From Bacteroidia bacterium (GTDB taxonomy: Bacteria > Bacteroidota > Bacteroidia > NS11-12g > UBA9320): a DNA stretch of 64,000 bases. Each line of letters starts with the position of its first letter. Positions within the stretch are counted from its first letter, which is position 1. The translations under genes and the position numbers were made by a program. The notes under the pieces are model-generated. The model made no database searches. It saw nothing but the letters and a program-made list of their open reading frames with translations, and had not been told where the DNA came from. Shown piece by piece: positions 3,129-38,793 of this stretch. The DNA is taken from the NCBI GenBank assembly GCA_965216465.1, contig CBDCFW010000005.1:416001-480000 (forward strand), given 5' to 3'.

Positions 3129-3172
3129 GAACTACTTCAACACCTCTCCCCCTCTTAATCGCTTAAATGCAT
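3129..3172. repeat. Direct repeat copy 2 (functional 3' end of mvaA)
   Basis: 41/44 identity to 1545-1588. Confidence 0.9.
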
Positions 3173-4457
3173 CTACCACTTCGGCGTGGTGCGGGGTGTT
3201 TTTAATGAAGTATTTAACAATGATTTGCTTTTCTTCTTCCGTTGCTTCAAGCTGATTGAGAATATTGAGCAAATGCATTTTCATATGACCTTGCTGAATT
3301 CCAGTAGTTGTAAGGCTTCTCAATGCAGAAAAGTTTTGTGCTAAACCAACTGTCGCGGTAATCTTCATCAAGTCTTCAGCACTTGGGTTCCCCAACATCT
3401 GGTGGGCAAATTTCACCATCGGGTGCAGTTTAGTTATTCCTCCAACCGTACCTAAGGCCAAAGGCACTTCAATATAAAATCTAAACTCACCATCACTCAA
3501 ATCAACATGGGTCAAACTTCCATAATGACCATCTTTCGTTGCATAAGCATGTGCACTGGCTTCAATAGCTCTGAAATCATTTCCTGTTGCCAAAATCACA
3601 GAGTCAATTCCATTCATCACCCCTTTGTTATGCGTTACAGCTCGATAAGGCTGAGTCTCGGCTATCTGCACCGCAGTCCTAAACCGTTTTGCAAACGCAT
3701 CCGGTTCAATATCGGTACCTTCGACCATCGCTGCAATTGGAGAGACCACCTCACTTCTTACTAAGCATTTAGGTGTGTAATTGCTCAAAATACACATCAC
3801 CACTTCAATTGCATTAGGATTTAAACTAGATTCTTGAACTTCTCGCCTCAACACATCAGCAAACTTCTCTAAACAAGTATTTATAAAATTTGCACCCATA
3901 CTATCACAGGTTTCAAACTCCGCTTCAAGTTGATAGTAGTTCTGAATATCGTTTGTTTTATCAACCAATGAAATCGATTCAATTCCACCTCCACGCTTAC
4001 GCATATTAGCTGTAATGCCTTCCGTTTCAGTATGAAATTTAGTCTCAATTTGTTTGAACAATTCAAATAACCCTACTTTATCAGTTCCCTCCCACATGAA
4101 GTGAACATGACCTATCTTGGTGGTACCGACAATAGAAGCTTGAAATCCACCCTTGTGATACCAGAAATTTGCAGCCTTTGCCGCCGCAGCTACAACTGAT
4201 GATTCTTCAATAGCCATCGGAACACAATAGTCTTGGCCATTGATTAAAAAATTAGGTGCAATTCCAAATGGAACATAGAAATTCGTGATGGTGTTCTCAA
4301 TAAACTCATCATGAAGTTTTTGAAGCTTTAAATCTTCATTCCAGTACTTTCTTAATGCTTCGACAGCTTCTGATGAACCGTCAAAATAATTTTGAATGAG
4401 CCACTCAATCTTGGCTTCTTTTGAGAGTTTCGAATACCCTTTAATGAACTTACTCAA
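3132..4457 (-). CDS. mvaA: Hydroxymethylglutaryl-CoA reductase, class II
   Basis: IENTI, PMAIEESSVVAA, DSMGAN, THNKGVMNG and GIQQGHMKMH motifs. Confidence 0.93.
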   Translation of the reverse strand: MSKFIKGYSKLSKEAKIEWLIQNYFDGSSEAVEALRKYWNEDLKLQKLHDEFIENTITNFYVPFGIAPNFLINGQDYCVPMAIEESSVVAAAAKAANFWYHKGGFQASIVGTTKIGHVHFMWEGTDKVGLFELFKQIETKFHTETEGITANMRKRGGGIESISLVDKTNDIQNYYQLEAEFETCDSMGANFINTCLEKFADVLRREVQESSLNPNAIEVVMCILSNYTPKCLVRSEVVSPIAAMVEGTDIEPDAFAKRFRTAVQIAETQPYRAVTHNKGVMNGIDSVILATGNDFRAIEASAHAYATKDGHYGSLTHVDLSDGEFRFYIEVPLALGTVGGITKLHPMVKFAHQMLGNPSAEDLMKITATVGLAQNFSALRSLTTTGIQQGHMKMHLLNILNQLEATEEEKQIIVKYFIKNTPHHAEVVDAFKRLRGGEVLK

Positions 4458-4459
4458 TT

Positions 4460-5449
4460 TTATCTCAGTTTTAAGTAGGTGTTTGCTAATTTCAGACCTC
4501 TGATTTGAAGATCTACATATTTTCTTAAGTCCTCGTAATTACCCCGTGAATGTTTTAAAAAGGACGAAGCTTGACCATATACCGCATTGGTTTTAATTTT
4601 CTTGATGTGGTAGTAGCCATCCATAAAATCACGAACTCCACCACTCACAATTACTTCACCAGCCTTCCCTCCGTGATCTAGTAATTCGTTATAAAACGAA
4701 ACCATCTCTTCGGCCGTATGGCCCCAATTTGCAATTTTATTGTAGGCTTCGTGCTCCATATCTTCACTGCGGTGCATCTCAAGTTTACTGAAGTTTGTTC
4801 CGCCATGAGCTCCAAAGTCAATGGCAGCTAAAGGTAAGTTCATTAACGCCCTTAGCGACTCAGGACCAAAACCTTGACCAACTTCCTTTACCACAATGGA
4901 TAAATCCATATCTAAAAGCCTTGAAATTGTATCAATTGGAGGCTGCTTAAGGCGATCTCCTTCCGGTTGTAACCATTCTTGAAGTGGATTTATATGGACA
5001 ATCAATCCATCAGTTTCGGTTTTCTTCAATAACTCAGATACATGATTCAATTGGTTTTGTGCTATGAGTTCTTCTACCTGTGCTATTCCCAAATTGGCAT
5101 ATAGGGGATAATCTCCAATTAAACTTCGCAATTGAAAATCAGAAAGGTATTCATCATTGTCTAAAATTATTCTGCAGCTGCCCAATCCCATACCCATGCC
5201 GAATTCTCCGCATGCTCGAGCAAGGTTTTTGTTTATGGTTCCTGCTTCTTTAGTGCCACCGGTCATGCTACTTACCCAAACAGGAACTTTTAGCTGTTTG
5301 CCTAAAAATGGTTTCGACAAGTCAATTTGATCTGGATGCTCAGCAAATAAGGGCTCATAAAAGAACCTTTCGTCTTGCGTATTCACTACCGATTTAAAAG
5401 CTAAATCAATATGATCTTTTTTTCTTTCTGATGTTTTAGTGTGTCCCAA
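4460..5449 (-). CDS. fni: Type 2 (FMN-dependent) isopentenyl-diphosphate delta-isomerase
   Basis: RKKDHI, SMTGG, NPLQEWLQPEGD, VKEVGQG and SGGVR motifs; start moved to TTG 5449 just below a TATCTTCG -7 box (ORF track start is 5473). Confidence 0.92.
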   Translation of the reverse strand: MGHTKTSERKKDHIDLAFKSVVNTQDERFFYEPLFAEHPDQIDLSKPFLGKQLKVPVWVSSMTGGTKEAGTINKNLARACGEFGMGMGLGSCRIILDNDEYLSDFQLRSLIGDYPLYANLGIAQVEELIAQNQLNHVSELLKKTETDGLIVHINPLQEWLQPEGDRLKQPPIDTISRLLDMDLSIVVKEVGQGFGPESLRALMNLPLAAIDFGAHGGTNFSKLEMHRSEDMEHEAYNKIANWGHTAEEMVSFYNELLDHGGKAGEVIVSGGVRDFMDGYYHIKKIKTNAVYGQASSFLKHSRGNYEDLRKYVDLQIRGLKLANTYLKLR

Positions 5450-5485
5450 AGCTGCGAAGATAATGTTAAGCAATAGAATGAATAA

Positions 5486-8338
5486 TTGGAATTAGATTAT
5501 TTAAATTGCAAAGCCATTAAAGCAATAAAACACATAGGGGGGTTAATTGTTTCCTTGCTCATCTTTGCATCGAGTTTTGCACAGCAACCACTTTACACGC
5601 AGTTAGGGAACAACCAAACACTCAACGGAGTCGAAATTTATGGAATGTCGCAAGACCGTTTGAAGAACATTTGGCTCACCACAAGTAATGGTCTATACAA
5701 ATACGACGGTGATGAATTTGAGAATATTAAGAATGAATCATTAATCACAAATGAGTTTTTTCAACCCTTCTTTACACCTTCAAACCGTTTTTACTTCACA
5801 GATATTTCAGGTGATATTTTTACCTTGAAAGACGATAAGATAACACCTTTTCTTCAACTATCAATTCGAGGTTTAGATTTGGATGGAGGCATGTTGGTGT
5901 CGGGCGAATACCTCTATGTAAAATCTAAAGACAGCCTTTTTCAAATAGACTCTAATGGAATCAAAGAGGCAATTTTTGGTTATAAATCGGCCTTTGCTGG
6001 AACACGAATAAAAATTCAAAAAGAGAGGTCAGAAATAACCATTTACACCAAAAATCACGCTGAAGAAATTTACATCAAAGGGAATGAAGTTAAAATTTCT
6101 AAAAACACGAAAAATCCCAATTATACAGCTGCACGACTCGAGCTACATGTAATAACTAATCACCACAACTTTCATGTAGAAAGCGATGCCATCAGATTCT
6201 CGAATCTTAATCATTTAGGGCCTTACATGGTCGATAAGTCCGGAAACCGATGGAAGGCTTTCAGGAATAAAAAAGGAGTGTTTTTAAAACGAAAGAATCA
6301 AGAACAAGAAAACCTCATTTTTGAGGAGTATAACATCAATTATATCTTCGAAGATGTTGACGACAACCTCTGGATTGGAACCCGAAATAATGGTATCTTT
6401 TTAGTCTCTGACCTTGAAGATTTCTCCTTTGCTCGAAGCTCAGAATTCCATGGAATATCGAGTGACGACCATCACGTATATGCCATTTCTCATAACCGAT
6501 TTCACGCCTTCGACAAAAGAACAATAAGCCAGTCGTCGGTCTATACACGAGCAACAAGCTCAAACCTTTATCTATTTAACAGCCCTGGTAAGGAGATGTA
6601 TAACTTTATCCAGACTAATAAGCATTATGTCATTTACAGAGGAACGGAAGAGATTGCACGACATCCTAGTCAAACATCGCTCATCAAAAATCATAAATGG
6701 GTCGATGATAGCACACTTATTGTTGCAACCGTAAGAGGGGCATACTTATTAAATCCGTTTACAAATACCCTATTAAGGCGATTAGGCGAATCGCAATGGC
6801 GTTGCTTGGATGTACAATGGGTATATGCCAAGCAGAAATACTTAATTGCAAGTGCACGAGGTCTAAAACTGCTTACAAAAAATGGAAAATTTGAACGCGA
6901 TATTTTACTTGCGGGAAGCCCTGTTTCAATTGAAAACCTTTTTGAAGTCAATGACAAAATATTTGGGATAGGACCTTCTGGAATTATTTATGATATTGAT
7001 GTTGACCACAGCACCATTTCTGAAATTGATCGCGTAGACATAAGTTTTTTGGTGATGTGTCGTCAGGTCGGAGATAATATTTTCATATTAGATAAGCACA
7101 ATGTTTATACCTACAACGTCTACACATCAACGCTAGGAAAGCTTCCAATTCTTTTACCTAACGATCTTACCCTTAGTGGAATAACAGTTAGCAATGATAA
7201 CATTTGGTTAAGTACAAGTAAGGGATTAGTAAAATTCGACCTCGAAAACTTTTCCAACCAAGTCCATGTTCCAGAGATTATGGTTGACATGTTTGAGGGG
7301 CACTTTTTATCTAAGGTTCAGAATAATTCTCGGTTCAAGTACAATAACAACAACCTATCGTTTAAGGTTAAAGTGCGCGATTATAAGTTTCAACGGTACA
7401 ATAGAATTCAATACCAATTGGTTGGTGCCGAACCGTTATTTACCGAAACAGCGTCAAGCGATTTAATTTCATATCGAGCTCTTTCTCCTGGTCATTACAC
7501 GTTTAGAGCAAAGGCCATTAACCCATTAGGAGCTGAAAGCGAAACCATTGAATACAAGTTTAGCATCAGTCATCCGTGGTGGTTAAAGTGGTGGTTTTAT
7601 GTCGCCCTTGCTGGGGTGATAGCAGCTATTTATGCCGCAGTGTACTATAGCAGTATAAAAAATAGAAGAGAACGTCGACGACTTAAAACGAGACTCCGAG
7701 AATCTCAAATTAACGCCATCATGGCACAAATGAATCCTCACTTCATATTCAATTGTTTAAACTCGATTCAGGATTTAATTTTACAAGAGGATATAAAAAG
7801 CAGCTACACCTATTTAGGGAAGTTTAGTGAGTTGACGCGAACAACCATGCAAGACAGTCAAAAGTCTGTAATTTCAATCAATCGAGAGTTAAACAACATA
7901 GGTTTATATCTTGAGTTAGAAGCACTTAGGTTTAAAGACTTAAATTATGAAATCATTAACACGCTTAGCGAAGAGCAATGTGAATTGTTTCATATACCTC
8001 CCATGCTCATTCAACCTTTTATAGAGAATGCGCTGAAGCATGGTCTCTTACACTCGAAGCAAAAAAAGAGGCTTGAGGTTGAAATTCAATACGACAAATC
8101 AGACTTAATAGTACAGATTAAAGACAATGGAGTTGGACGAGAGGAAGCAACTAAAATTAAAAAACGTCAAAGTAAGTATCGGTCATTCAGCGGAGGTGCC
8201 ATTGCAAAGCGCATTAGCTTGCTGAATTATCAAAAGGAGATGAAGATAAAACTTAAAACTGTTGATCACGTGAATGAAAATAAACTTGGATGGAGCACCA
8301 TTGTAGAGATACGATTTATTAATTTTACCTCCTATTAA
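5486..8338 (+). CDS. Sensor histidine kinase: periplasmic beta-propeller + Y_Y_Y domain, one TM helix, LytS-type His_kinase + HATPase
   Basis: QDRLKNIWLTT and EDVDDNLWIGT propeller repeats; YRALSPGHYTFRAKA; AQMNPHFIFNCLNSI; IPPMLIQPFIENALKHG; DNGVG; exact start uncertain. Confidence 0.9.
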   Translation: MELDYLNCKAIKAIKHIGGLIVSLLIFASSFAQQPLYTQLGNNQTLNGVEIYGMSQDRLKNIWLTTSNGLYKYDGDEFENIKNESLITNEFFQPFFTPSNRFYFTDISGDIFTLKDDKITPFLQLSIRGLDLDGGMLVSGEYLYVKSKDSLFQIDSNGIKEAIFGYKSAFAGTRIKIQKERSEITIYTKNHAEEIYIKGNEVKISKNTKNPNYTAARLELHVITNHHNFHVESDAIRFSNLNHLGPYMVDKSGNRWKAFRNKKGVFLKRKNQEQENLIFEEYNINYIFEDVDDNLWIGTRNNGIFLVSDLEDFSFARSSEFHGISSDDHHVYAISHNRFHAFDKRTISQSSVYTRATSSNLYLFNSPGKEMYNFIQTNKHYVIYRGTEEIARHPSQTSLIKNHKWVDDSTLIVATVRGAYLLNPFTNTLLRRLGESQWRCLDVQWVYAKQKYLIASARGLKLLTKNGKFERDILLAGSPVSIENLFEVNDKIFGIGPSGIIYDIDVDHSTISEIDRVDISFLVMCRQVGDNIFILDKHNVYTYNVYTSTLGKLPILLPNDLTLSGITVSNDNIWLSTSKGLVKFDLENFSNQVHVPEIMVDMFEGHFLSKVQNNSRFKYNNNNLSFKVKVRDYKFQRYNRIQYQLVGAEPLFTETASSDLISYRALSPGHYTFRAKAINPLGAESETIEYKFSISHPWWLKWWFYVALAGVIAAIYAAVYYSSIKNRRERRRLKTRLRESQINAIMAQMNPHFIFNCLNSIQDLILQEDIKSSYTYLGKFSELTRTTMQDSQKSVISINRELNNIGLYLELEALRFKDLNYEIINTLSEEQCELFHIPPMLIQPFIENALKHGLLHSKQKKRLEVEIQYDKSDLIVQIKDNGVGREEATKIKKRQSKYRSFSGGAIAKRISLLNYQKEMKIKLKTVDHVNENKLGWSTIVEIRFINFTSY

Positions 8339-8342
8339 GAAA

Positions 8343-9101
8343 GTGGAGAACATAAAAGCCATAATTGTTGACGATGAGGAAAGTTCAAGAAATATCTTAA
8401 GCAATATTCTCACAAAGTATGTTGAAGGAATTTATATTTTAGACAAATGTGCTGATGTTCCCAGTGCTGTAGATTCTGTTAAAAGAGAGAAGCCCGATGT
8501 TGTTTTTCTCGATATCGAAATGCCTAATTATAGTGGATTTGAGTTTCTCAACTTCTTCGACAAAATAGATTTTGAAATCATTTTTGTTTCGGCTTATGGC
8601 GAGTACGCTCTTAAGGCCTTTGATGTTTCGGCGGTCGATTATGTTTTAAAACCCATTCAAATCGAAAAAATACAAAACAGTATTGACAAGCTTCGAAACC
8701 GAATTCAATTGACCACAATGCAAGAACGATTTTCGGCACTTCAAGAAAATTTGAAGCAAGACAATGTTCATAAGCTAGCATTACCTATGTCGGATGGTCT
8801 TGTTTTTGTGAATACCAGCGAGATAATATTTCTTATAGCAGATGGCTCTTATACCAACATCTTTCTGCTCGATGGCACTAAATATTTAGTGAGCAAGAAA
8901 CTCAAGTTTTTTGAGCAGGCACTCTCCGACAACCGAAATTTCAAACGAGTACATCGTTCTTCGATGGTTAACCTTTCGCATGTTGTTAAATATCACAAAC
9001 ATGAAGGTGTATTAAGCTTTGGCAACAATGGCAACATTAAGGTTGCGAGAGACCGTAAATCAGGTATCGAGAACATACTGCACCAGTTTAGCGGACAATA
9101 A
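8343..9101 (+). CDS. LytTR-family DNA-binding response regulator
   Basis: Receiver motifs IVDDE, FLDIEMP, DYVLKP; LytTR-domain motifs ADGSYT and FKRVHRSSMVN; 4 bp after the kinase. Confidence 0.93.
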   Translation: MENIKAIIVDDEESSRNILSNILTKYVEGIYILDKCADVPSAVDSVKREKPDVVFLDIEMPNYSGFEFLNFFDKIDFEIIFVSAYGEYALKAFDVSAVDYVLKPIQIEKIQNSIDKLRNRIQLTTMQERFSALQENLKQDNVHKLALPMSDGLVFVNTSEIIFLIADGSYTNIFLLDGTKYLVSKKLKFFEQALSDNRNFKRVHRSSMVNLSHVVKYHKHEGVLSFGNNGNIKVARDRKSGIENILHQFSGQ

Positions 9102-9115
9102 ATCAGAATAAGTTT

Positions 9116-9147
9116 TACGGTTTATGGACTGAAAACTACCGTTTATG
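9116..9147 (+). promoter_or_regulatory. LytTR-type binding site (two direct repeats, 21-bp period)
   Basis: TACGGTTTATG (9116-9126) and TACCGTTTATG (9137-9147); the 9-mers ACGGTTTAT/ACCGTTTAT with a 12-bp spacer fit the LytTR consensus [TA][AC][CA]GTTN[AG][TG]. Confidence 0.75.
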
Positions 9148-9178
9148 AAACGAGCGGATAACCTCAACAAAGTCTTTC

Positions 9179-9186
9179 TATCTTTA
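9179..9186 (+). promoter_or_regulatory. Bacteroidota -7 promoter element variant (TATCTTTA) for the candidate sRNA
   Basis: 7/8 match to TAnnTTTG, about 30 bp downstream of the LytTR repeats. Confidence 0.55.
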
Positions 9187-9190
9187 CACT

Positions 9191-9341
9191 ATTGATGCGT
9201 ACACGTGAATTATATAACCCCTAATTCACGGCATGTTGACTAACCCCCAACATAAACCCCCACATGTATTGTACGGACCAATGAATTAAAATAATTACCT
9301 CAAATGAAGTTAAATCCCGCTCTGGCGGGATTTTTCATTTT
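9191..9341 (+). ncRNA. Candidate structured sRNA with repeated (U/A)AACCCC motifs
   Basis: Stem CGTGAATTA/TAATTCACG with loop TATAACCCC; stem ATGTTG/CAACAT with loop ACTAACCCC; third AAACCCCC; closing stems CGTACA/TGTACG and ATTG/CAAT; terminator at the 3' end. Confidence 0.65.
9312..9341 (+). terminator. Rho-independent terminator
   Basis: AAATCCCGC-TCTG-GCGGGATTT followed by TTCATTTT; may also serve the convergent DUF2797 gene. Confidence 0.85.
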
Positions 9342-9350
9342 CAAGTGCTT

Positions 9351-10169
9351 CTAAATAGATATTGACACGCGATATCCGCTGTGACTTCTTATGTTTATGA
9401 CTCTTCCACCGTCAAAGATTAAGTATTGACCCTTAATTCCTTCCAATCTTCCTTCAATAATTTTTTCTTTATCCAGCTTCATGCTCTTAACCTTATCAGG
9501 AAATTCAATAACAGGATATTTTATAGATACAATCTCATTTGAGTCTGATGCATAGTGACTCAATTCATCAGGAATATGACTCAACATTTTGGCTTTAATA
9601 TTGGTAATGTCATCATCCGTTTCGACTAGACCTTTTAACATACGTTGCCAGGCCGTTTTATCCGAAATATGAGCCTTAAGAGCAACTTCTATTTCTCCGG
9701 CTAGCTGGCGATAAGGTACTTCTGAGAGCACAATTGCCTGTGTAGCTCCTTGGTCAATCCAGCGATGAGGAATATTAGAATCACGGGTAACTCCAACTTT
9801 AAAATTGCTGGTTAAGGATATATACACCACATGCGGTTGAAGATGATGACGAACTTCCCACTCATAATCTCTCAATGCAATGCCTTCATGAATTCTACTG
9901 AGCTCCGGCCTCATAATGCTCGGGCTAGCTTGTGGACTTTCCATAAACTCCTTATACGTCATTCCCTCACCAAAGGCCTTCTTAATTTTTTCACCAGACA
10001 AGATTGAGTTGATATATCCTTCATATTCCAATTTTAATTCTTGGCCTACTAAGGCATTCATCTCAATTTTTTCGTATGGATCAAGCACGTCTCTCAAGTG
10101 CAAAGTATACTGTGCTTCACCGTCGACGAGATCGGTATCCATCTTCCTTAGATTTCCTTCTAATTGCAT
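9351..10169 (-). CDS. DUF2797 domain-containing protein
   Basis: EGNLRKM start; HLQPHVVY, KVGVTR, RWIDQGATQA and GIKGQYLIF motifs; ATG at 10169 preferred over TTG 10187. Confidence 0.8.
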   Translation of the reverse strand: MQLEGNLRKMDTDLVDGEAQYTLHLRDVLDPYEKIEMNALVGQELKLEYEGYINSILSGEKIKKAFGEGMTYKEFMESPQASPSIMRPELSRIHEGIALRDYEWEVRHHLQPHVVYISLTSNFKVGVTRDSNIPHRWIDQGATQAIVLSEVPYRQLAGEIEVALKAHISDKTAWQRMLKGLVETDDDITNIKAKMLSHIPDELSHYASDSNEIVSIKYPVIEFPDKVKSMKLDKEKIIEGRLEGIKGQYLIFDGGRVINIRSHSGYRVSISI

Positions 10170-10233
10170 TGCAGGTACAATATTCAAACATCCATGGTAA
10201 ATAGCAAAAAGAATAGAGTATTACATTTGTTTA

Positions 10234-12625: not shown

Positions 12626-12653
12626 AAAGCTCTCCTACTGGTGGGCTTTTTTT
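12626..12653 (+). terminator. Rho-independent terminator
   Basis: AAAGCTC...GGGCTTT hairpin plus T-run between convergent genes. Confidence 0.6.
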
Positions 12654-13158
12654 ATTTCTTGGGTGAAAGATTCTTTGCTATTCCACTTAAGATTAAGATG
12701 AAACCTAACGTAGACAAGCCTACAATCAGTAAGACATCCGCATAGGGCCAATGCATTATTTTAAACAACACTCCAACTACAAACATCCCAAGACAAACCC
12801 ACTTTATTGGTCTCAATAATTTAGGTTCTTTAATTTCGGACAAATAGTTCTTGGTGAATAAATGAAAGGCTATATAGGCTACTAATAGTGCTATTGAAAA
12901 TCCCACCTTGCCTATTGATTCAAGTGCATTGATTTGTGCCAGTACCAAACCTACAATCAGAAAGAGAAAAGGATAAACTATGCGCTCATCTTTGTCTTTT
13001 ACCAAGAGTGAGTACGCTAAATACGAAGCTACGTGCAACCAGAATCCACCGAACATCAGTTCTCTCCCATTGGTCCAATGCATCAAATTAAAAAGATATC
13101 CAAATACGGTTATGGCTAGCGAGGAATATATCGTTGTTATTAAGAATTTCTTCATCAA
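12652..13158 (-). CDS. Membrane protein with two GldL-N-terminal-like motifs
   Basis: GYLFNLMHWTNG and GVLFKIMHWPYA; about six hydrophobic helices. Confidence 0.6.
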   Translation of the reverse strand: MMKKFLITTIYSSLAITVFGYLFNLMHWTNGRELMFGGFWLHVASYLAYSLLVKDKDERIVYPFLFLIVGLVLAQINALESIGKVGFSIALLVAYIAFHLFTKNYLSEIKEPKLLRPIKWVCLGMFVVGVLFKIMHWPYADVLLIVGLSTLGFILILSGIAKNLSPKK

Positions 13159-14178: not shown

Positions 14179-16038
14179 TTATTCTACAATGATTTTTTCA
14201 CTGTAAATGTTCTCATCCTTTTCATTGAAGATTGAAAGGATGTAAAGCCCAGAACTTATTCCGTCGGCGTTAACCAAAAACTTCATTGGTCCTGCATTAA
14301 CTTCCAGATTATCCATTTCCTTTACTACGCTTCCTGCTAAATCTGAAATTTGTATTGTTACAACATCGTCATTTGGAAAAACTGCTCCAACTCGGAACAT
14401 TTCTGTAACTGGATTTGGATAGGTAACGAAGTCTTCAATGACAAAAAGGTCATTTTTGGCCTTCAATTTCGCAACCCATACATTATTGTAATTACGATCA
14501 TCTCCATAGCTGCCACAAACCCAAACTACACCCGGCTCGTTGTACTTTCTTTGCACATCAGTGTAATCTCCCCAACGTTCTATATCATTGTCTAGCCACG
14601 AATCAATAAGTCCAGTTCCTTCCTTAACTACAATCGGTTTAGAATAAAGACCTTCTTTGCCTGATGCTCTGTTTTGATAGATTGCAGAAGTTCCTGGAAA
14701 AGCAGTTTCACCAACGTGAGAGAAGGTTATCATCATCGAATGCTCATCATCACCGTCTATACCAGCAAATGCTATAGACGGATATGCATAATCAAGTGTA
14801 TCTGAAGATATAATTTCAGCATCAACGCTCGGATTCCCAGCAACATCAGATATCACTCCGTGAAATACTCCTGAGCTTAATTGTTCAGGCACCAAGGTCG
14901 ATTGAACATAGTGTATAGTGTTTCGGTGATACACTCCTGATAACACTCTGGTATCATTTGTTTGCAGTTTGTATCCAACCTCAGGTTGAAAAGCACTTGG
15001 TGGTACACCGTATTGTTTATTTGCTTTAAGAACAGATAACTCATGTTCAGCTTGACCAGATTTTGACGTATTGGTAATTTCATGCAAAAACAAGGTATCA
15101 TTGGCCATTGCATCTGGTCGCACAGAAAGAAAATACATGTTATCTTGATCAAAGTCTAAGGCTGGTTGAACCGGGCAAATACTCCATACGGGCTTGCCAC
15201 CATACTCAATATCATAAAATAAGTTTTGGGTTAACTCATCGCCATTGTACCCATCCTCTTTATTGATTTGCCAAATAAAACTCTGAACAAAACCTTCCTG
15301 CCAAGACTCATTGTCGCGAAGCAAGTTAACCGTTATATACAGGTCTTCTTGATTATGGGCTATAATCGGATAATCACTCCAGGTCTCTCCTCCGAGTGGC
15401 TTGCCGTCAATTGCATAAAAATTCCAGTTTCCTGTGGGGTCTGAAGTCTGCGAGAATCCTGTAACGATTCTGGTATCATTGCTGTTACTACCCTCAAGGA
15501 AAACCAAAATAAATCGATCATTGATTGGATCGTAAGTAACTTTTGGGTCGTAATAACGATCTAATAGACCCAGTTGCCCGCGTACAAATGCACCTAGTGT
15601 TCTGAACAATAGCAATTCGCCATCGCTGTCTAAAATGGTTATTGTCGTATTAATCGCGCTAATGATTATTCCATCATTGCTAATTGCCATGGTGTTGTCG
15701 TTTGGAATACCACTGCCACCAATCGGACGAGCGTTGAAACTATCTAACAATTCTGGATATACATCACTTTGTTCTGAGATGTACGATGTTTTGGCCTTGA
15801 ACTGAGCTTTACGTTTTCTTTTCGCATCCAGTTGTTTCTTAACCTCATGCGAACGCATTACGGGTTCTGGTGCAAGTTCTTCACCTTTTAATCGAACAAG
15901 ATCTAGGTCAACACTTTGTTCAGATAAGTTGACTGTCCATTGTTTATAGGTTTTAACGTTGGACATTTTTTTATAATCAACCTGACCAAATGTAAAGGTT
16001 GTAAAAGCAAGTATAGATAGCGTTAACAGTACTTTCAT
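14179..16038 (-). CDS. T9SS type A sorting domain-containing secreted protein
   Basis: Signal peptide; RWGDY motif; C-terminal YPNP...ISDLAG...SSGLYIL...KIIVE. Confidence 0.8.
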   Translation of the reverse strand: MKVLLTLSILAFTTFTFGQVDYKKMSNVKTYKQWTVNLSEQSVDLDLVRLKGEELAPEPVMRSHEVKKQLDAKRKRKAQFKAKTSYISEQSDVYPELLDSFNARPIGGSGIPNDNTMAISNDGIIISAINTTITILDSDGELLLFRTLGAFVRGQLGLLDRYYDPKVTYDPINDRFILVFLEGSNSNDTRIVTGFSQTSDPTGNWNFYAIDGKPLGGETWSDYPIIAHNQEDLYITVNLLRDNESWQEGFVQSFIWQINKEDGYNGDELTQNLFYDIEYGGKPVWSICPVQPALDFDQDNMYFLSVRPDAMANDTLFLHEITNTSKSGQAEHELSVLKANKQYGVPPSAFQPEVGYKLQTNDTRVLSGVYHRNTIHYVQSTLVPEQLSSGVFHGVISDVAGNPSVDAEIISSDTLDYAYPSIAFAGIDGDDEHSMMITFSHVGETAFPGTSAIYQNRASGKEGLYSKPIVVKEGTGLIDSWLDNDIERWGDYTDVQRKYNEPGVVWVCGSYGDDRNYNNVWVAKLKAKNDLFVIEDFVTYPNPVTEMFRVGAVFPNDDVVTIQISDLAGSVVKEMDNLEVNAGPMKFLVNADGISSGLYILSIFNEKDENIYSEKIIVE

Positions 16039-20240: not shown

Positions 20241-21830
20241 ATGGCAAAAACTAATTTATCACCGAGGCAGAAAATGATTAACATGATGTATCTTGTTCTG
20301 CTCGCTTTACTCGCTCTGAACGTAGATCGACATGTACTGAAGGCTTTTCACGACATGGAATTGAACCTGATTTCATCTGCTTCCAATTACGATGCAAAAA
20401 ACAAACTACAAATGGCTAGCTTCTTAAAGCTGCTTCAATCTGATGAAGAAAAAGCAAAACCTTACTATGAGTCAGCATTAAAGGCTCAAGAAATTTCAAA
20501 AGAATTCAACACTTACATTGAAGGTCTAAAAACGGAGATTGAAGAACTTTACCGCGGTCGCGAAGAGGCCGAAGAAGATGAGCTAGTCGGGGCACTTAAG
20601 ACTCCAGAACAAATGGAGAAGCATGCAAATCTTTTTGTGGTAAAAGACAAAGGCAAAAGAGCAAAAGAGCTTCAAACTAAAATCAATACCACAAGAGATA
20701 AGTTACTTGAATTATTAAAACCCGACAAAGACTCTTTGTTTCGAGATAATAGACAATACCACCAAGCGAAACGTTCAAACTTGTTAAATGCCAACGATCC
20801 ATCTTCGGCTGGAGTTAACAAAAAAACATGGGCTTCTGAAAACATAGAATACAAACCTGTTGGTGCCTTGATGGCATTGCTAACTCAATACCAAAATAAC
20901 GCCAAAGCTTTAGAAGCGGATGTTATTCGTGGATTAATGACGGGTGTAAACGAAGGTTCATTTATCGTTGATCAAATCGACGCTAAAATTATCCCTCGAT
21001 CAAACTACGTTATGGCAGGAGAAAATTATCGAGCGGAAGTTATGCTCATAGCCACCAACTCAACCGTCCAACCTAAGATCACCATGAACGGAGAGGTTCT
21101 AGAAGATGTTGACATGGGTATTGGAAATATAAGTTTTCCTGTTTCTGGAATTGGTGAACAAACCGTATCGGGAGTGGTTACCGTAAACGACCCCACTACC
21201 AATAAACCCAAAGAATATTCCTACAATGATACATTTCAGGTTTTTAGCCCGGTTGCGACGGTTTCAGCAGACAAAATGAATTTGCTGTATGTCGACTTGA
21301 ACAACCCATTATCCATATCGGTTCCCGGGTTTAGTGCCGCAGATATTCGCGTTAGCGTTTCGAGCGGAGCACGAATCACCGGAAGCAATGGACGCTACAA
21401 CATCAAGGTAGACGGATCTCAGCGAAAGGTAAATGTTACCGTATTTGCAAAAGGAAACAACATGGGTACGACTGAATATCGTGTAAGAAATGTTCCCACA
21501 CCAAGCTTGCAAATTGGAGGAATTACCAATTTCTCAAGAGGCCTTCGTAGAGCTGAGCTTATTCCTCAGAATGCCATGTATGCAAATCTTGGAATGGATT
21601 TCGCCTACGACATGCGCTGGAGAGTGTTAAGCTATAAAGTAATTTACATCCCGCGAAACAGACCTGCAGTTTGGAAACAAGTAACTGGAAGTGCCATTCC
21701 ATCTGATGTAAAGCAATGGTTCAGATCAGCACAACCTGGAGATCGTTTCTCGATAGAATCTGTAAAAGCACAAGACACAGAATACGGTATAAGACGTAAT
21801 CTTAATCCCACTTCGTTTGTAATGAGGTAA
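20241..21830 (+). CDS. gldM: Gliding motility/T9SS motor subunit GldM (PorM family), stand-alone copy
   Basis: SPRQKMINMMYLVLLALLALNV signature; ATVSADKMNLLY..L.NPLSISVPG. Confidence 0.88.
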   Translation: MAKTNLSPRQKMINMMYLVLLALLALNVDRHVLKAFHDMELNLISSASNYDAKNKLQMASFLKLLQSDEEKAKPYYESALKAQEISKEFNTYIEGLKTEIEELYRGREEAEEDELVGALKTPEQMEKHANLFVVKDKGKRAKELQTKINTTRDKLLELLKPDKDSLFRDNRQYHQAKRSNLLNANDPSSAGVNKKTWASENIEYKPVGALMALLTQYQNNAKALEADVIRGLMTGVNEGSFIVDQIDAKIIPRSNYVMAGENYRAEVMLIATNSTVQPKITMNGEVLEDVDMGIGNISFPVSGIGEQTVSGVVTVNDPTTNKPKEYSYNDTFQVFSPVATVSADKMNLLYVDLNNPLSISVPGFSAADIRVSVSSGARITGSNGRYNIKVDGSQRKVNVTVFAKGNNMGTTEYRVRNVPTPSLQIGGITNFSRGLRRAELIPQNAMYANLGMDFAYDMRWRVLSYKVIYIPRNRPAVWKQVTGSAIPSDVKQWFRSAQPGDRFSIESVKAQDTEYGIRRNLNPTSFVMR

Positions 21831-21867: not shown

Positions 21868-21932
21868 ATTGTGACAAATAGCTTAAACAACTTTAATTTT
21901 TGTATGCTAGATTTGCGTTCTATAATTTTCGC

Positions 21933-24900
21933 ATGTACAAAAACACCCAAAGATTCCTCGTACTAGGACTACTCTTATTTTCTTTCTCTTTTGCCCAAGC
22001 TCAAAAACTCACATACAAAATGATGATGTATGACATGAGTTACAACTTTTATGAAGTAGTTGAAGCTGCTGAAGAGTACTTCAAAGACAAACCAAAAGGC
22101 AAAGGAAGCGGATGGAAAGGCTACCAACGCTGGAAAAATGAAAACGAGAGCAAATACTACCCTACTGGGATCAGATCAAACATTGATCACTACCTTCCTC
22201 AACGTACTTATTCTACCTTAAAGGAGGAATACAATCGATACCATTTTAAAACTTCTTTTGATAACGGCTGGGTTGAATTAGGTCCATGGGAAACAGGAAC
22301 AATCACTAGGCACTACAGTTCTGGACTCGGTAGAGTTGAAACTTTTTATGTAGACCCTGCTGATTCAAACAGAATATTTCTAGGCTCTAGAAGTGGTGGA
22401 TTTTGGAAAACTGATGATGGAGGAAGTACATGGACAAATACAACCGATTTCTTAGAAGCTTCAGGTGTAGAAACCATTGCTGTGAACCCAAATAACACTG
22501 ACGAAGTTCTGATTAGTGTTCAACATGGAGGAAACGGATACACCTATGGGATTTACCGATCTACTGATGGTGGAGAAACTTGGTCGAAAACCAATTTTGA
22601 ACCCACCAACTTAAATTGGGGTGGACTAGGTGATAATGAACGCATTTATAAAATGGCCTATCACCCATTAATCGAAAATCGCATATATGTTGGTACCACC
22701 AAAGGATTATTCGTTTCTGACGACAACCTCGATACATGGACCAATACCATGGGAAGCTGGATTCGTGATATTGAATTTCATCCAACTTCAAGCAATGTAG
22801 TGTATGTATATCGCTATACCTCTGGCGATGCCAATCGAGTAAAAATTAGTACAGACACGGGTTATACCTTTGTTAATTCAATATCGTTGACGGATAACAA
22901 CAATGCACGTGCGTTTTTATCAACTACACCAGTTGAACCTGATCATCTGTATTTCGCTTCGACAAACGGAGTTTGGAAGTCAAGAGATCGAGGTACAACT
23001 TTTGAATTCCTAGCTAATCCAGAAGAATCTTGCCAAGCATTTGCAATATCTGACTTAGATACTGCAATTATGATGTACGGCTATGTCGACATGGAATTTA
23101 GTGATAATGGTGGACTAAGTTTTGAGCAAATCACTAACTGGTATGCTCCCGTTCCACATGACCAATATATTCACGCAGATCTAAGAGCAATGGAGTGCCT
23201 TAATGGCGTTTTCTACGCAGGAACGGATGGCTATTTAGTAAAATCATACAACAATGGAGAAACATGGCACCGTTTGAATGAAGGGACTGCAATTCGTGAG
23301 TTTTATGCAGCGGGTTTATCGCAATCAAATCATAAGGTTCATATGGCAGGTTCGCAAGACAATGGTACAAGCATCTTGAACAATGACGGTTGGATTGAGT
23401 GGAATGGTGGAGATGGTATGGAAGCTATAATCCAACCACTTAATGAAGATATAATGTTAGGAAGCTGGCAATATGGTTCACGTAATTTTACGAACGACGG
23501 AGGAATCACGCGTAGAGCTGTAGGCAATCCTTCAAGTGGTCAAGGTAAAGCAGCATGGGAGGCTCCTTTGCTTATGAATCCACTCAAACAGATGGAAGTA
23601 TATCACTTTAGCGACAAAATGTACACGAGTGAAGACTTCGGTCAAACTTGGAGATTGACTGGCAGTCCGCAAATTGGTTTGATTACAGAAGCAGCAATAG
23701 CAGAAAACAATGGTGACATTATAGCCGTATCTCGTGGAGGAAATCTACAACTTACAACTGATGGCGGTGCCAATTGGACTAACAGATCTGGTCTACTTCC
23801 AGGCAATACAATTACCGACATTGCATTTGATCCCAACGATGACAATACGATGTATGTAACCTATAACTTCTATGGAGACGACGGTAAAAAAATATACGTA
23901 ACATATAACCAAGGTCAAACTTGGGAAAACATCACTTACAATTTAGGTAATATGCCGCTCAGAACGGTTGTTGTTGACCACAGCGATTCGTCTTATATCT
24001 ACGTTGGTGGTGAGGTAGGTGTGTACTACAAAAGTAAAAATGGCAAAACTTGGACGCTTTACGACGAAAACATGCCTACAGTTACCGTGAAAGATTTAGA
24101 AATTCATTACGGAAGCAACTCCATTAAAGCGGTTACTTGGGGTCGTGGGCTATGGGAGTACACCTTAGTAGGAAGAAATGATTATCCTTCGATAAACACA
24201 ACAAACATTACACACCCAGTTGACGAAGAAAATCCGAAGTATAGCACTTCTCAGTTTGTAACTGCTTCCATCATTTACGATGACAACCTAACTAATGTTT
24301 ATACAATCTGGTCGTTGAATAATACAAACTTAAGCGACACCATTCCAATGAATTATATTGGTTCAGATGAATGGATTACACGAAGTGCGTTCCCTAATCT
24401 TCAAGAAGGTGACAATGTTTATTTTAAGGTTATTGCTGAAGGAACTGGCAACGAAGTTTCTGAGTCTTATCGATTCCAATTTGAGGTTAAAGAATTTGAG
24501 TACTGTTTTGCCCTAGGATCAACGAATACAACTTCTGACTACATCACAAGAGTTCAGTTGGAGGACATCGATAACGAATCAAATCAAGACTTTTACGCCA
24601 GCAACATACTTCAAGAAACCGATTTAGTATCAGGAGAAGAATACGAGCTTACAATTACAATGAACTATTCATTTACTGAAGACACAGTAGCTGCTTGGAT
24701 CGACTTTAACAATGATGCCAATTTCAGTACCGATGAGCATATTATTATGTCAGCTATTGATGAACAGCATGTTAGTACCGGAAAATTCACTGTACCGTTA
24801 GATGCTGTTTCTAACACTAAACTAAGAATGAGAACACGCTCGCAATACAACTCACTACCTAATCCCTGTGATGAATTTGCAGGAGAAGTAGAAGACTATA

Positions 24901-25181
24901 CCGTTATTGTTCGTGAAAGTGGTAACACACACGAACTTAATAAGGAAATTAAGTTTGATCTTTCGCCCAATCCAAGTTCAGGAAGTTTTGAAATAGCTCT
25001 ATTTGAAGATTACGATGAAGTTTCAATCAACGTATATGACCTTCAAGGCAAGCTGGTTCATCAATCAGCATACAATCACCAATTAAAAATTGGATTGGAC
25101 CTTAATTTATCATCAGGAACTTACATCGTTGACATTAAGGCTGATCATGCTCAGGGGCAAAAGAAACTGATTGTTAACTAA
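21933..25181 (+). CDS. T9SS-secreted BNR/VPS10-like beta-propeller protein with GEVED domain
   Basis: Repeated S.DGG.TW Asp-boxes; IHAD; QDNG; GGDG; TWGRGLW; AWIDFN...GEVEDY; C-terminal PNPS...YDLQGK...SGTYIV. Confidence 0.85.
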   Translation: MYKNTQRFLVLGLLLFSFSFAQAQKLTYKMMMYDMSYNFYEVVEAAEEYFKDKPKGKGSGWKGYQRWKNENESKYYPTGIRSNIDHYLPQRTYSTLKEEYNRYHFKTSFDNGWVELGPWETGTITRHYSSGLGRVETFYVDPADSNRIFLGSRSGGFWKTDDGGSTWTNTTDFLEASGVETIAVNPNNTDEVLISVQHGGNGYTYGIYRSTDGGETWSKTNFEPTNLNWGGLGDNERIYKMAYHPLIENRIYVGTTKGLFVSDDNLDTWTNTMGSWIRDIEFHPTSSNVVYVYRYTSGDANRVKISTDTGYTFVNSISLTDNNNARAFLSTTPVEPDHLYFASTNGVWKSRDRGTTFEFLANPEESCQAFAISDLDTAIMMYGYVDMEFSDNGGLSFEQITNWYAPVPHDQYIHADLRAMECLNGVFYAGTDGYLVKSYNNGETWHRLNEGTAIREFYAAGLSQSNHKVHMAGSQDNGTSILNNDGWIEWNGGDGMEAIIQPLNEDIMLGSWQYGSRNFTNDGGITRRAVGNPSSGQGKAAWEAPLLMNPLKQMEVYHFSDKMYTSEDFGQTWRLTGSPQIGLITEAAIAENNGDIIAVSRGGNLQLTTDGGANWTNRSGLLPGNTITDIAFDPNDDNTMYVTYNFYGDDGKKIYVTYNQGQTWENITYNLGNMPLRTVVVDHSDSSYIYVGGEVGVYYKSKNGKTWTLYDENMPTVTVKDLEIHYGSNSIKAVTWGRGLWEYTLVGRNDYPSINTTNITHPVDEENPKYSTSQFVTASIIYDDNLTNVYTIWSLNNTNLSDTIPMNYIGSDEWITRSAFPNLQEGDNVYFKVIAEGTGNEVSESYRFQFEVKEFEYCFALGSTNTTSDYITRVQLEDIDNESNQDFYASNILQETDLVSGEEYELTITMNYSFTEDTVAAWIDFNNDANFSTDEHIIMSAIDEQHVSTGKFTVPLDAVSNTKLRMRTRSQYNSLPNPCDEFAGEVEDYTVIVRESGNTHELNKEIKFDLSPNPSSGSFEIALFEDYDEVSINVYDLQGKLVHQSAYNHQLKIGLDLNLSSGTYIVDIKADHAQGQKKLIVN

Positions 25182-25950: not shown

Positions 25951-26823
25951 ATGGGCTTTAGAAAAATTCTAGTTGTAGCAAATTCTTATGCATGTGGAGG
26001 GAAGGCCACTGAAGTTCTCAATAAATACATAAGCTTTTTAAAGGCAAATGACATTTCGTATTACTCCTACTTAACAACTCCTAAGAATAATGTTCAGAAC
26101 ATTCAAAAATTGATAGAAGTTGAGAAGTGTGATCTTGTGAGCATTCTTGGAGGAGACGGTACAATCAACATTGCCATAAACTGCTTGCCCAATTTAGACA
26201 TGAAGGTGCACATTATTCCTGCAGGAACTGGAAATGATCTTGCCAAAATGGTGTACCCTAATGGATTTGAACTTAGTGATGTATTCAATCTGGTTTTAAA
26301 TGACAACCCAAAGTTTACGCAAGCCGATGTTTGGATGTGCAATAAACGAAGATTCGCCAATGGTTTTGGGGCTGGCTTCGATGGAGAAGTTGCCCATCGA
26401 ACAATAAATAAGAAATACATCATCTCCAACAGGCTTAAGTATTGGTTTGAAATCTTCAGGTTGATTTTCACATATCGAAATCGAGACATTAAAATTAACG
26501 GCGAAAAACTATCCTGTTTTATGATTGCCGCAGCTAACGGAAACGTGTATGGTGGCAACTTCAAAATTGCTCCTAAAGCACAAATTAACGATCAGCTTTT
26601 AGACCTGATTAATATCTCCCGTGCTTCTGTCTTTAAGCGGTTGAGGTATCTTCCTCAAGTTCAAAAAGGCAAACACCTTAACCTACCAGTAATTAACTAT
26701 AGCCAGCAAGACCACCTGGTAATTTCCTGTAATTCAAAATTAGCTGCTCATGTTGATGGTGAGCCTATTTTAGATTCTATTTACCACATCAATTTCGATG
26801 GTAAACTAAACGTTTTGGTTTAG
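25951..26823 (+). CDS. Diacylglycerol/lipid kinase family protein (YegS/DagK-like)
   Basis: GGDGT, IPAGTGNDLA, GAGFDG, NG..YGG, AP.A..ND and HVDGE motifs. Confidence 0.9.
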   Translation: MGFRKILVVANSYACGGKATEVLNKYISFLKANDISYYSYLTTPKNNVQNIQKLIEVEKCDLVSILGGDGTINIAINCLPNLDMKVHIIPAGTGNDLAKMVYPNGFELSDVFNLVLNDNPKFTQADVWMCNKRRFANGFGAGFDGEVAHRTINKKYIISNRLKYWFEIFRLIFTYRNRDIKINGEKLSCFMIAAANGNVYGGNFKIAPKAQINDQLLDLINISRASVFKRLRYLPQVQKGKHLNLPVINYSQQDHLVISCNSKLAAHVDGEPILDSIYHINFDGKLNVLV

Positions 26824-38433: not shown

Positions 38434-38793
38434 GTGCGAATCTTGCAATTTGAAATCTCTGGAATTGAGTTTAAAGAGCTGGCAAATCAAATTTATACCC
38501 GATTTGAATTCAAGTTTCACAATGCGAGTGATGATATGATTTTCATGATTTACGAGCGATCTTATCTTTATGAGATTAGTGTTTGCAACATAATTTCCAT
38601 TAAAAAGCAAGGCGTCAAACTGGTACTTGATGCCATATCATCTAATGCCGCTTTAACACTCCGACGTTCAACCTGGGGTCAAAGACGGTTTCATAAACAC
38701 GTGAGAAAAATCATGAAGCAACTACAAGAAGAAAATGGCTTCGAAATGGTCGAAATAAAAGATGAGCTTATACCTTGGAATGGCCACGCTTAG
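38434..38793 (+). CDS. Hypothetical protein
   Basis: 119-aa ORF filling the gap; GTG start 4 nt below a TATATTCG box. Confidence 0.55.
   Translation: MRILQFEISGIEFKELANQIYTRFEFKFHNASDDMIFMIYERSYLYEISVCNIISIKKQGVKLVLDAISSNAALTLRRSTWGQRRFHKHVRKIMKQLQEENGFEMVEIKDELIPWNGHA

Follow-up and report, generated by a model that had tools for sequence, protein, structure and literature searches.

A candidate small RNA behind a LytTR two-component operon in a Bacteroidia genome, and a putative promoter design that in relatives precedes type IX secretion cargo

A kinase-regulator operon followed by repeats, a -7-type box and a terminator

We analysed a stretch of 64,000 nucleotides (nt) from a Bacteroidia bacterium (GenBank assembly GCA_965216465.1, contig CBDCFW010000005.1, positions 416,001 to 480,000), hereafter the window, in which a two-component operon is followed by a short region that may give rise to a small RNA. 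The operon consists of a sensor histidine kinase gene and, starting 4 nt past it, the gene of a LytTR-family response regulator (Table 1). A sequence-only reading of the same DNA had called the kinase a propeller sensor, and Pfam bore this out: the protein begins with a signal or transmembrane segment, and its sensor is of the propeller type (Reg_prop, Y_Y_Y). A kinase with a His_kinase domain (PF06580) stands beside a regulator with Response_reg and LytTR domains, which is the LytS-type pairing; the 5TM-Lyt membrane sensor domain of classical LytS had no Pfam match in the kinase. In an alignment with homologs, Asp D57 and K103 of the regulator receiver occupy invariant columns. Among six proteins around the locus, Pfam identified an HMG-CoA reductase, the kinase, the regulator and a DUF2797 protein, and two had no match. 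Only one of the 80 related loci described below, L001, is orthologous to the window across the whole module.

Past the regulator stop codon lie two direct repeats. The 11-mers TACGGTTTATG (9116-9126) and TACCGTTTATG (9137-9147) are identical at 10 positions and have a period of 21 base pairs (bp), i.e., a 9-12-9 layout. A search of both strands of the 64 kb for GTTYRTGRA-N12-GTTYRTGAA with at most one mismatch returned one match against 0.03 expected (3 of 100 shuffles matched). The repeats lie ~10 bp upstream of the -35 position, which is where 9-12-9 repeats usually lie in LytTR systems according to the accessible part of PMC6193735. They are followed by TATCTTTA, which agrees with the Bacteroidota sigma-A -7 box TAnnTTTG (-12 to -5, as given in the available text of PMC9723704) at five of its six specified bases, or seven of eight positions if the two free ones are counted; its final G is an A. 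Upstream of the kinase gene, neither the window nor L001 has a repeat pair, and the pair past the regulator gene is the only one in the 64 kb. A second candidate at 38690-38718 (- strand) was rejected, as its period is 20, one half has two mismatches and TTTG is missing at the expected offset.

No open reading frame (ORF) of at least 20 amino acids (aa) with an ATG, GTG or TTG start occurs on either strand within 9171-9350. The region ends in a terminator-like hairpin at 9312-9333 with nine pairs (five G-C), a 4-nt loop CUCU/G and the tail TTCATTTTCA. The repeats, box, ORF-free stretch, terminator and convergent gene listed by the sequence-only reading were all found where it had placed them, and its statement that the promoter faces no protein gene held in both the window and L001, where a terminator follows with no ORF of at least 20 aa before it. 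From the regulator stop codon (9101) to the repeats there is no terminator, and hence the kinase-regulator operon, too, ends at 9312-9341.

The minimum-free-energy fold of the predicted transcript places C-rich motifs in two hairpin loops, UAUAACCCC and ACUAACCCC, and leaves a third C-run, AAACCCCC, unpaired. Folding of 9186-9345 gave a z score of -5.3, and none of 200 shuffles was as stable; with the terminator left out (9193-9305) the score was -2.5, and three of 200 shuffles were as stable. Three AACCC motifs within 60 nt are unique to this region on the + strand (63 AACCC in 64 kb), and two of the strand's 14 runs of at least five C lie within the predicted RNA. Rfam 15 had no match at the gathering score anywhere in the window. 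The best sub-threshold hit for 8900-9500 was STnc180 (17.5 bits against a threshold of 50, E = 0.56), and that for L001 5200-5520 was PyrR (23.3 bits against 54). When we looked for further copies of 9150-9345 in the window and the 80 loci with blastn-short and nhmmer, the query matched itself alone.

Table 1. Features of the locus, with the identity of L001 counterparts to the window proteins
Feature	Position	Strand	Description	L001 identity
Upstream divergent gene			337 aa	71%
Sensor histidine kinase gene	5486..8338	+	950 aa as called; Pfam: Reg_prop, Y_Y_Y, His_kinase PF06580, HATPase_c	39% (full length, adjacent)
LytTR-family response regulator gene	8343..9101	+	252 aa; Pfam: Response_reg, LytTR	57%
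Direct repeat 1	9117..9125	+	ACGGTTTAT; promoter-distal putative LytTR box	
Direct repeat 2	9138..9146	+	ACCGTTTAT; promoter-proximal putative LytTR box, 12 bp after repeat 1	
-7-type box	9179..9186	+	TATCTTTA; consensus TAnnTTTG; 30-37 nt after repeat 2	
Predicted non-coding transcript	9191..9341	+	~150 nt; start placed from the box, end from the terminator U-tract	
Hairpin 1	9204..9230	+	9-bp stem, 9-nt loop UAUAACCCC (9213-9221); minimum-free-energy fold	
Hairpin 2	9233..9253	+	6-bp stem, 9-nt loop ACUAACCCC (9239-9247); minimum-free-energy fold	
Unpaired C-rich stretch	9254..9269	+	AAACCCCCACAUGUAU; with loop 2, the only part aligning to the L001 RNA	
Intrinsic terminator, U-tract	9312..9341	+	also ends the kinase-regulator operon	
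DUF2797 gene	9351..10187	-	convergent, boundary of the unit; Pfam; syntenic in L001	67%

The repeat-to-box geometry in relatives and the genes behind it

Regulator homologs number in the thousands, and those named are from Bacteroidota. The closest, P0002, is 76% identical to the window regulator, followed by P0003-P0006 (53-59%) and a broad plateau near 50%. Searching contigs with the window regulator aligned to 18 homologs, we obtained 80 loci whose regulators are 40-57% identical to that of the window; the window's own genome is outside this set. In 22 of the 80, the + strand carries a repeat pair of 21-bp period and core GTTYRTGAA no more than ~130 nt past the regulator stop codon. Alignment of these 22 putative promoters with that of the window (n = 23) gave the consensus t.TaC..TTCATGAA cT.AAA...aC.gTTCaTGAA, 30 nt, nAnTTTTG. 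TTTG stands exactly at positions 35-38 after repeat 2 in 15 of the 23 and TTT at 35-37 in 18, and the window box is 1 nt closer to repeat 2 than in most relatives. By comparison with the consensus in the available text of PMC9723704, the nAnTTTTG of this shared design appears to be the Bacteroidota sigma-A -7 box. Many loci have a further repeat pair 70-230 nt upstream of the regulator gene.

The element usually precedes a gene for a secreted protein. Of the 22 loci, 19 have a signal-peptide-like ORF, which begins 53-77 nt beyond repeat 2 (147 nt in L020). We scanned 18 of the 19 adjacent proteins with Pfam, the one at L074 being cut by the contig end, and found Por_Secre_tail, a type IX sorting domain, in 17; the protein at L031 had no match. 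Beside Por_Secre_tail, the cargo proteins carry Laminin_G_3, NHL/TEN_NHL, FG-GAP and other domains. These 19 cargo-promoter loci fall within L003-L074 (e.g., L012:5267-6316 and L021:5320-7229). Some form tandem arrays, each further cargo gene being preceded by a separate repeat promoter that immediately follows the gene before it, with second repeat pairs at L010:6427, L012:6384 and 7498, L017:4582 and L047:6888. A terminator-like hairpin between the regulator gene and the repeats could be read from the sequence in L018, L019, L021, L022 and L074, for example. Because the same geometry precedes separate genes, several of them separately terminated, and a signal-peptide ORF follows so regularly, the element most likely works as a promoter in these relatives. 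By extension, the comparison supports a regulator-dependent promoter made up of the repeats and the box in the window.

The sequence-only reading had pointed to the regions past LytS/LytTR pairs as the place to look for the full layout. The repeats and the -7-type box did recur in the 22 loci; an ORF-free stretch with a strong intrinsic terminator 95-150 nt past the predicted start was found in the window and L001 only. Counting both strands of all loci and the window, we located 60 repeat-plus-TTT-box sites, at 46 of which an ATG ORF of at least 60 aa comes within the next 40-170 nt (L001 is outside this count owing to the TTT filter). Of the 14 sites without such an ORF, two have a perfect-stem terminator, those in the window and in L028. 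In L028 (5286-5500), the same repeat promoter precedes a 28-aa signal-peptide-like ORF (MKKMHSRAIL...) and the terminator, an arrangement that looks like a decayed cargo gene.

The lack of a terminator ahead of the repeats also means that operon transcripts must run to 9341 and that the region is, whatever else it may be, the 3' untranslated region (UTR) of the kinase-regulator mRNA. One could propose that it is a structured 3' UTR and nothing more, with no independent transcript: its C-rich, G-poor stretch may be a Rho-loading or stability element, and the repeats a roadblock or feedback site acting on the operon. The composition of 9210-9275 would suit such a role (C minus G = 14, a value reached by ~1.2% of 66-nt windows on this strand), as would the imperfect -7 box. 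Against this, the same repeat-to-box geometry stands at a fixed distance before separate genes in 19 loci, the window and L001 each retain a TAnnTT-type box where one is expected, and the strong intrinsic terminator makes a Rho site redundant. We therefore consider a 3' UTR without a transcript of its own improbable.

Outside the regulator operon, the window contains type IX secretion genes (GldL_N-like, 12652-13158, - strand; GldM, 20241-21830, + strand) and two Por_Secre_tail cargo genes (14179-16038, - strand; 21900-25181, + strand), which together indicate that the organism has a type IX secretion system. The repeat promoter is absent at both cargo genes, and neither is among the top seed matches of the predicted RNA described below. 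Two of the surveyed loci call for comment. L010 is titled Candidatus Competibacteraceae (Pseudomonadota) yet has a Bacteroidota-type LytTR regulator and Por_Secre_tail cargo, and this lineage mismatch is probably a binning error in the source genome. In L020, a C-rich stretch, TAACCCCCTGAAACCCC, lies directly past the regulator stop codon and upstream of the repeats (5258-5290); it recalls the motifs of the window RNA and may be a coincidence.

Predicted RNA output in the window and in L001

In L001, the regulator gene is followed by the repeats, a box TATATTCA at 31-38 after repeat 2, no ORF and a strong terminator. The predicted L001 RNA, ~95 nt, consists of a single-stranded C-rich 5' end, UAACCCUCAAAUAAUGACCCC, which holds UAACCCU and UGACCCC, then one hairpin and the terminator (z = -6.0). 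Comparison of the two loci revealed 29 of 38 identical positions in the repeat block (binomial P ~5e-9 at p = 0.3) and 12 of 42 in the following 42 nt, which is chance level. Conservation of the block next to a spacer at chance suggests that the binding sites are under selection in both lineages despite the lack of a protein gene behind them. Overall, the RNA bodies can barely be aligned. Window positions 9241-9272 do align locally to the L001 5' end (TAACCCnCAA-ATAA-ACCCC...ATTG), with a local score reached by 2% and a semi-global score reached by 1.2% of 2000 shuffles. A motif built from the two RNAs matched those two alone in 736,630 bases; we set it aside as circular, since it shows just absence elsewhere. 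In a quick regulator tree, the window and L001 form a pair (Shimodaira-Hasegawa-like approximate likelihood ratio test, SH-aLRT, 98) outside a 29-row clade holding 18 cargo loci, a topology that gives no direction of change between cargo and RNA output.

LytTR systems of Firmicutes often control peptide genes, and the transcript might in principle encode a tiny peptide. The candidate in the window is an 18-aa frame from the ATG at 9233 (9233-9289). Its L001 counterpart has 13 aa of unrelated sequence, and the shared AACCCnCAA lies upstream of the L001 ATG, in a frame without a start codon. Neither frame resembles a signal peptide or a leader, and none reaches 20 aa. A coding function of this kind thus seems very improbable to us.

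We also examined possible RNA targets. Whole-RNA duplex prediction was discarded, as the duplexes were unrealistically long. With seed-only duplexes, the 5' part of the kinase gene came out top among 64 ORF starts for loops 1 and 2 and took second place for the third motif. The match falls on a G6 run at 5537, GGGGGGTTA (5537-5545), complementary to the UAACCCCC loops. The + strand of the window has no other G run of at least six and just one further run of at least five, and GGGGTTA is found on it at this site only. When the seeds were slid over the whole window, equal or better sites than the kinase site appeared elsewhere, and the L001 kinase gene has no counterpart of the G-rich site. Feedback of the RNA on the kinase mRNA is therefore a weak lead only. 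A further candidate is a 13-bp complementarity between the third C-rich stretch and a site at 25987 (25975-26003), early in a DAGK/YegS-like lipid kinase gene.

Since an adjacent type IX cargo gene is found in 19 of the 22 loci, an RNA output is exceptional, and gene loss could have left it behind as a relic. According to this explanation, an ancestral cargo gene was deleted and its promoter now runs into the operon terminator; a short transcript may still be made, without a function of its own, and the repeats may be kept as a decoy or titration site for the regulator. The frequency of signal-peptide genes and of Por_Secre_tail behind the promoter in relatives favours such a history, L028, with its promoter, 28-aa ORF and terminator, resembles an intermediate, the RNA body is barely conserved beyond its short C-rich core, and no target was identified. 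Other evidence is harder to reconcile with it. First, a useless site should have decayed as the spacer did, and the repeat block has not. Second, the C-rich core aligns better than 98% of shuffles. Third, neither the window nor L001 retains a trace of a signal-peptide ORF. Finally, the tree sets both regulators outside the cargo clade, so descent from a cargo-type ancestor is not implied. We regard an orphan promoter as unlikely, though it deserves to be taken seriously.

We favour instead an RNA as the output of the window promoter. The steps that we infer (regulator binding, a transcription start, a discrete RNA and its action in trans) would run as follows. The propeller-sensor, LytS-type kinase would phosphorylate the LytTR regulator, a dimer of which would bind the 9-12-9 direct repeats at 9117-9146 and activate a sigma-A promoter with its -7 box at 9179-9186. 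Transcription would start near 9191 and stop at the 9312-9341 terminator. The product would be a non-coding RNA of ~150 nt that shows (U/A)AACCCC three times, in two 9-nt loops and one unpaired stretch, and that may base-pair with G-rich (GGGGUUA-like) sites in other mRNAs. In sister systems across Bacteroidota, the same promoter geometry would turn on the adjacent type IX cargo gene; the lineage that includes the window and L001 would produce an RNA in its place.

Several points weigh against this reading. The RNA body folds just moderately better than shuffles once the terminator is left out, and the operon needs a terminator anyway, so the terminator alone lends no support to a separate RNA. 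The window -7 box is imperfect in both its final base and its 1-nt shift, and the L001 box is weaker still. L028 suggests that gene decay can leave orphan promoters of this kind. An nhmmer search started from the window RNA missed L001, which, like the blastn result, shows that sequence conservation of the RNA body is low. The predicted structures differ as well, with two C-loop hairpins in the window and a single-stranded C-rich 5' end plus one hairpin in L001. An RNA-type layout was seen in two genomes only. Finally, no convincing target emerged: seed matches as good as the best ones occur at more than one place in the window, and L001 has none of them.

Taking both sides together, we think it likely that a short, regulator-dependent transcript exists. 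A trans-acting role for it is plausible, and the full explanation, with that regulatory role included, comes near an even call without reaching it. The sequence-only reading had named a small RNA as the immediate output of the system; the promoter geometry and the C-loops of the predicted fold agree with that proposal, which had missed the usual target in relatives, type IX cargo. RNA output is a well-motivated candidate in two genomes. The firmer gain may lie in the comparison across relatives: a single putative promoter design, shared by a large LytS-type/LytTR family and usually aimed at adjacent type IX cargo. A broader scenario, which we offer tentatively and would sooner doubt than accept, is that a fixed design (9-12-9 repeat, ~32 bp, -7 box) switches on type IX cargo across many Bacteroidota lineages, and that in one lineage a small RNA with C-rich loops replaced the cargo, so that the signal is now carried post-transcriptionally.

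Comparison with known systems

The sequence-only reading had described the locus as an Agr/RNAIII-like module, which overstates the likeness. RNAIII of Staphylococcus aureus uses C-rich loops. The AgrC/AgrA-P3-RNAIII system resembles the window in its LytTR regulator, its paired direct repeats and its RNA output (predicted here). AgrA binds paired direct repeats upstream of the RNAIII promoter according to the accessible part of PMC4227749. In the window, the LytTR domain and the conserved 9-12-9 repeats would suit such binding. The differences are considerable: Pfam found neither AgrB nor AgrD among the six proteins scanned, nothing points to peptide quorum sensing, the kinase is LytS-type (PF06580) with a propeller sensor and not AgrC-type, and neither a divergent autoregulatory P2-like promoter stands beside the RNA promoter nor a repeat pair upstream of the operon. 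RNAIII has 514 nt; the window RNA would have ~150 nt and encode no peptide, and Rfam indicated no sequence relationship. The label "Agr-like" can hold as an analogy only.

A second Firmicutes system offers another comparison. In Clostridium perfringens, VirR of the VirS/VirR pair binds two direct repeats and directly activates VR-RNA as well as protein genes. Here, too, sister promoters would drive protein genes. The two cases differ in phylum, repeat sequence and sensor, and binding and RNA are predictions in ours.

Closer to home, the sister loci, which have a propeller or LytS-type kinase, share with the window the regulator family, the GTTYRTGAA 9-12-9 core and the distance to the -7 box. 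They differ in output, which is a secreted LamG, NHL or FG-GAP protein, with Por_Secre_tail in nearly all those scanned. They also often form tandem arrays, and many have a repeat pair upstream of the regulator gene; the window has neither. In enterobacteria, the 3'-UTR small RNAs MicL and DapZ are each made from a separate promoter, located at the 3' end of the operon upstream, and they use the terminator of that operon. The window promoter likewise lies at an operon 3' end with a shared terminator. MicL and DapZ depend on Hfq and belong to another phylum, and the window promoter lies just past the stop codon, not inside coding sequence.

In its exposed C-rich motifs the window RNA resembles LhrC (controlled by LisRK), RsaE/RoxS and sX13, which expose several such motifs in loops or single strands, some of these RNAs being driven by a two-component system, as described in the available parts of PMC4132741, PMC5419742, PMC4409812 and PMC3771888. 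It has no Rfam match to any of them. Known members of that class pair with G-rich ribosome-binding regions. Bacteroidota mRNAs naturally lack Shine-Dalgarno sequences according to the accessible text of PMC6847099, and hence targets of the window RNA would be of another kind. Within the phylum, Rfp18 of Flavobacterium psychrophilum is a structured small RNA with its seed in a stem-loop, linked to the expression of secreted proteases and an adhesin (PMC9723704). We liken it by description, as a structured small RNA in Flavobacteriia; the available part of that paper names no regulator for it, and the term LytTR is absent from the paper.

We found no description of a LytTR-to-small-RNA or LytTR-to-type IX cargo link in Bacteroidota, in a literature search whose coverage left out most subscription journals. 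Small-RNA regulation in this phylum is poorly mapped. The comparison yields a putative binding motif and promoter geometry for a large uncharacterised propeller/LytS-LytTR family, with adjacent type IX cargo genes as its probable usual direct targets, together with a candidate RNA output that has an exposed C-rich seed. If confirmed, the RNA circuit would be the first of the AgrA/RNAIII or VirR/VR-RNA kind in a phylum without Shine-Dalgarno-led translation, and its C-rich seed would need targets other than ribosome-binding sites. A real and functional RNA would mean that a secretion-linked signalling system can shift from direct gene activation to RNA-based control, and it would help to find out what a C-rich seed can recognise in bacteria with mRNAs devoid of Shine-Dalgarno sequences.

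Two minor observations concern the upstream side of the locus. The kinase start codon is uncertain in the window (5474-5560), where the first TTG (5486) lies 12 nt from the called start of the divergent gene. In L001 (1560-1730), the conserved signal-peptide region of the kinase has no in-frame ATG, GTG or TTG upstream of it; the start codon there may be non-canonical, or the assembly may be in error. The HMG-CoA reductase gene (3132-4457, - strand) lies two genes upstream of the window kinase and points to an enzyme of the mevalonate pathway in this Bacteroidota genome.

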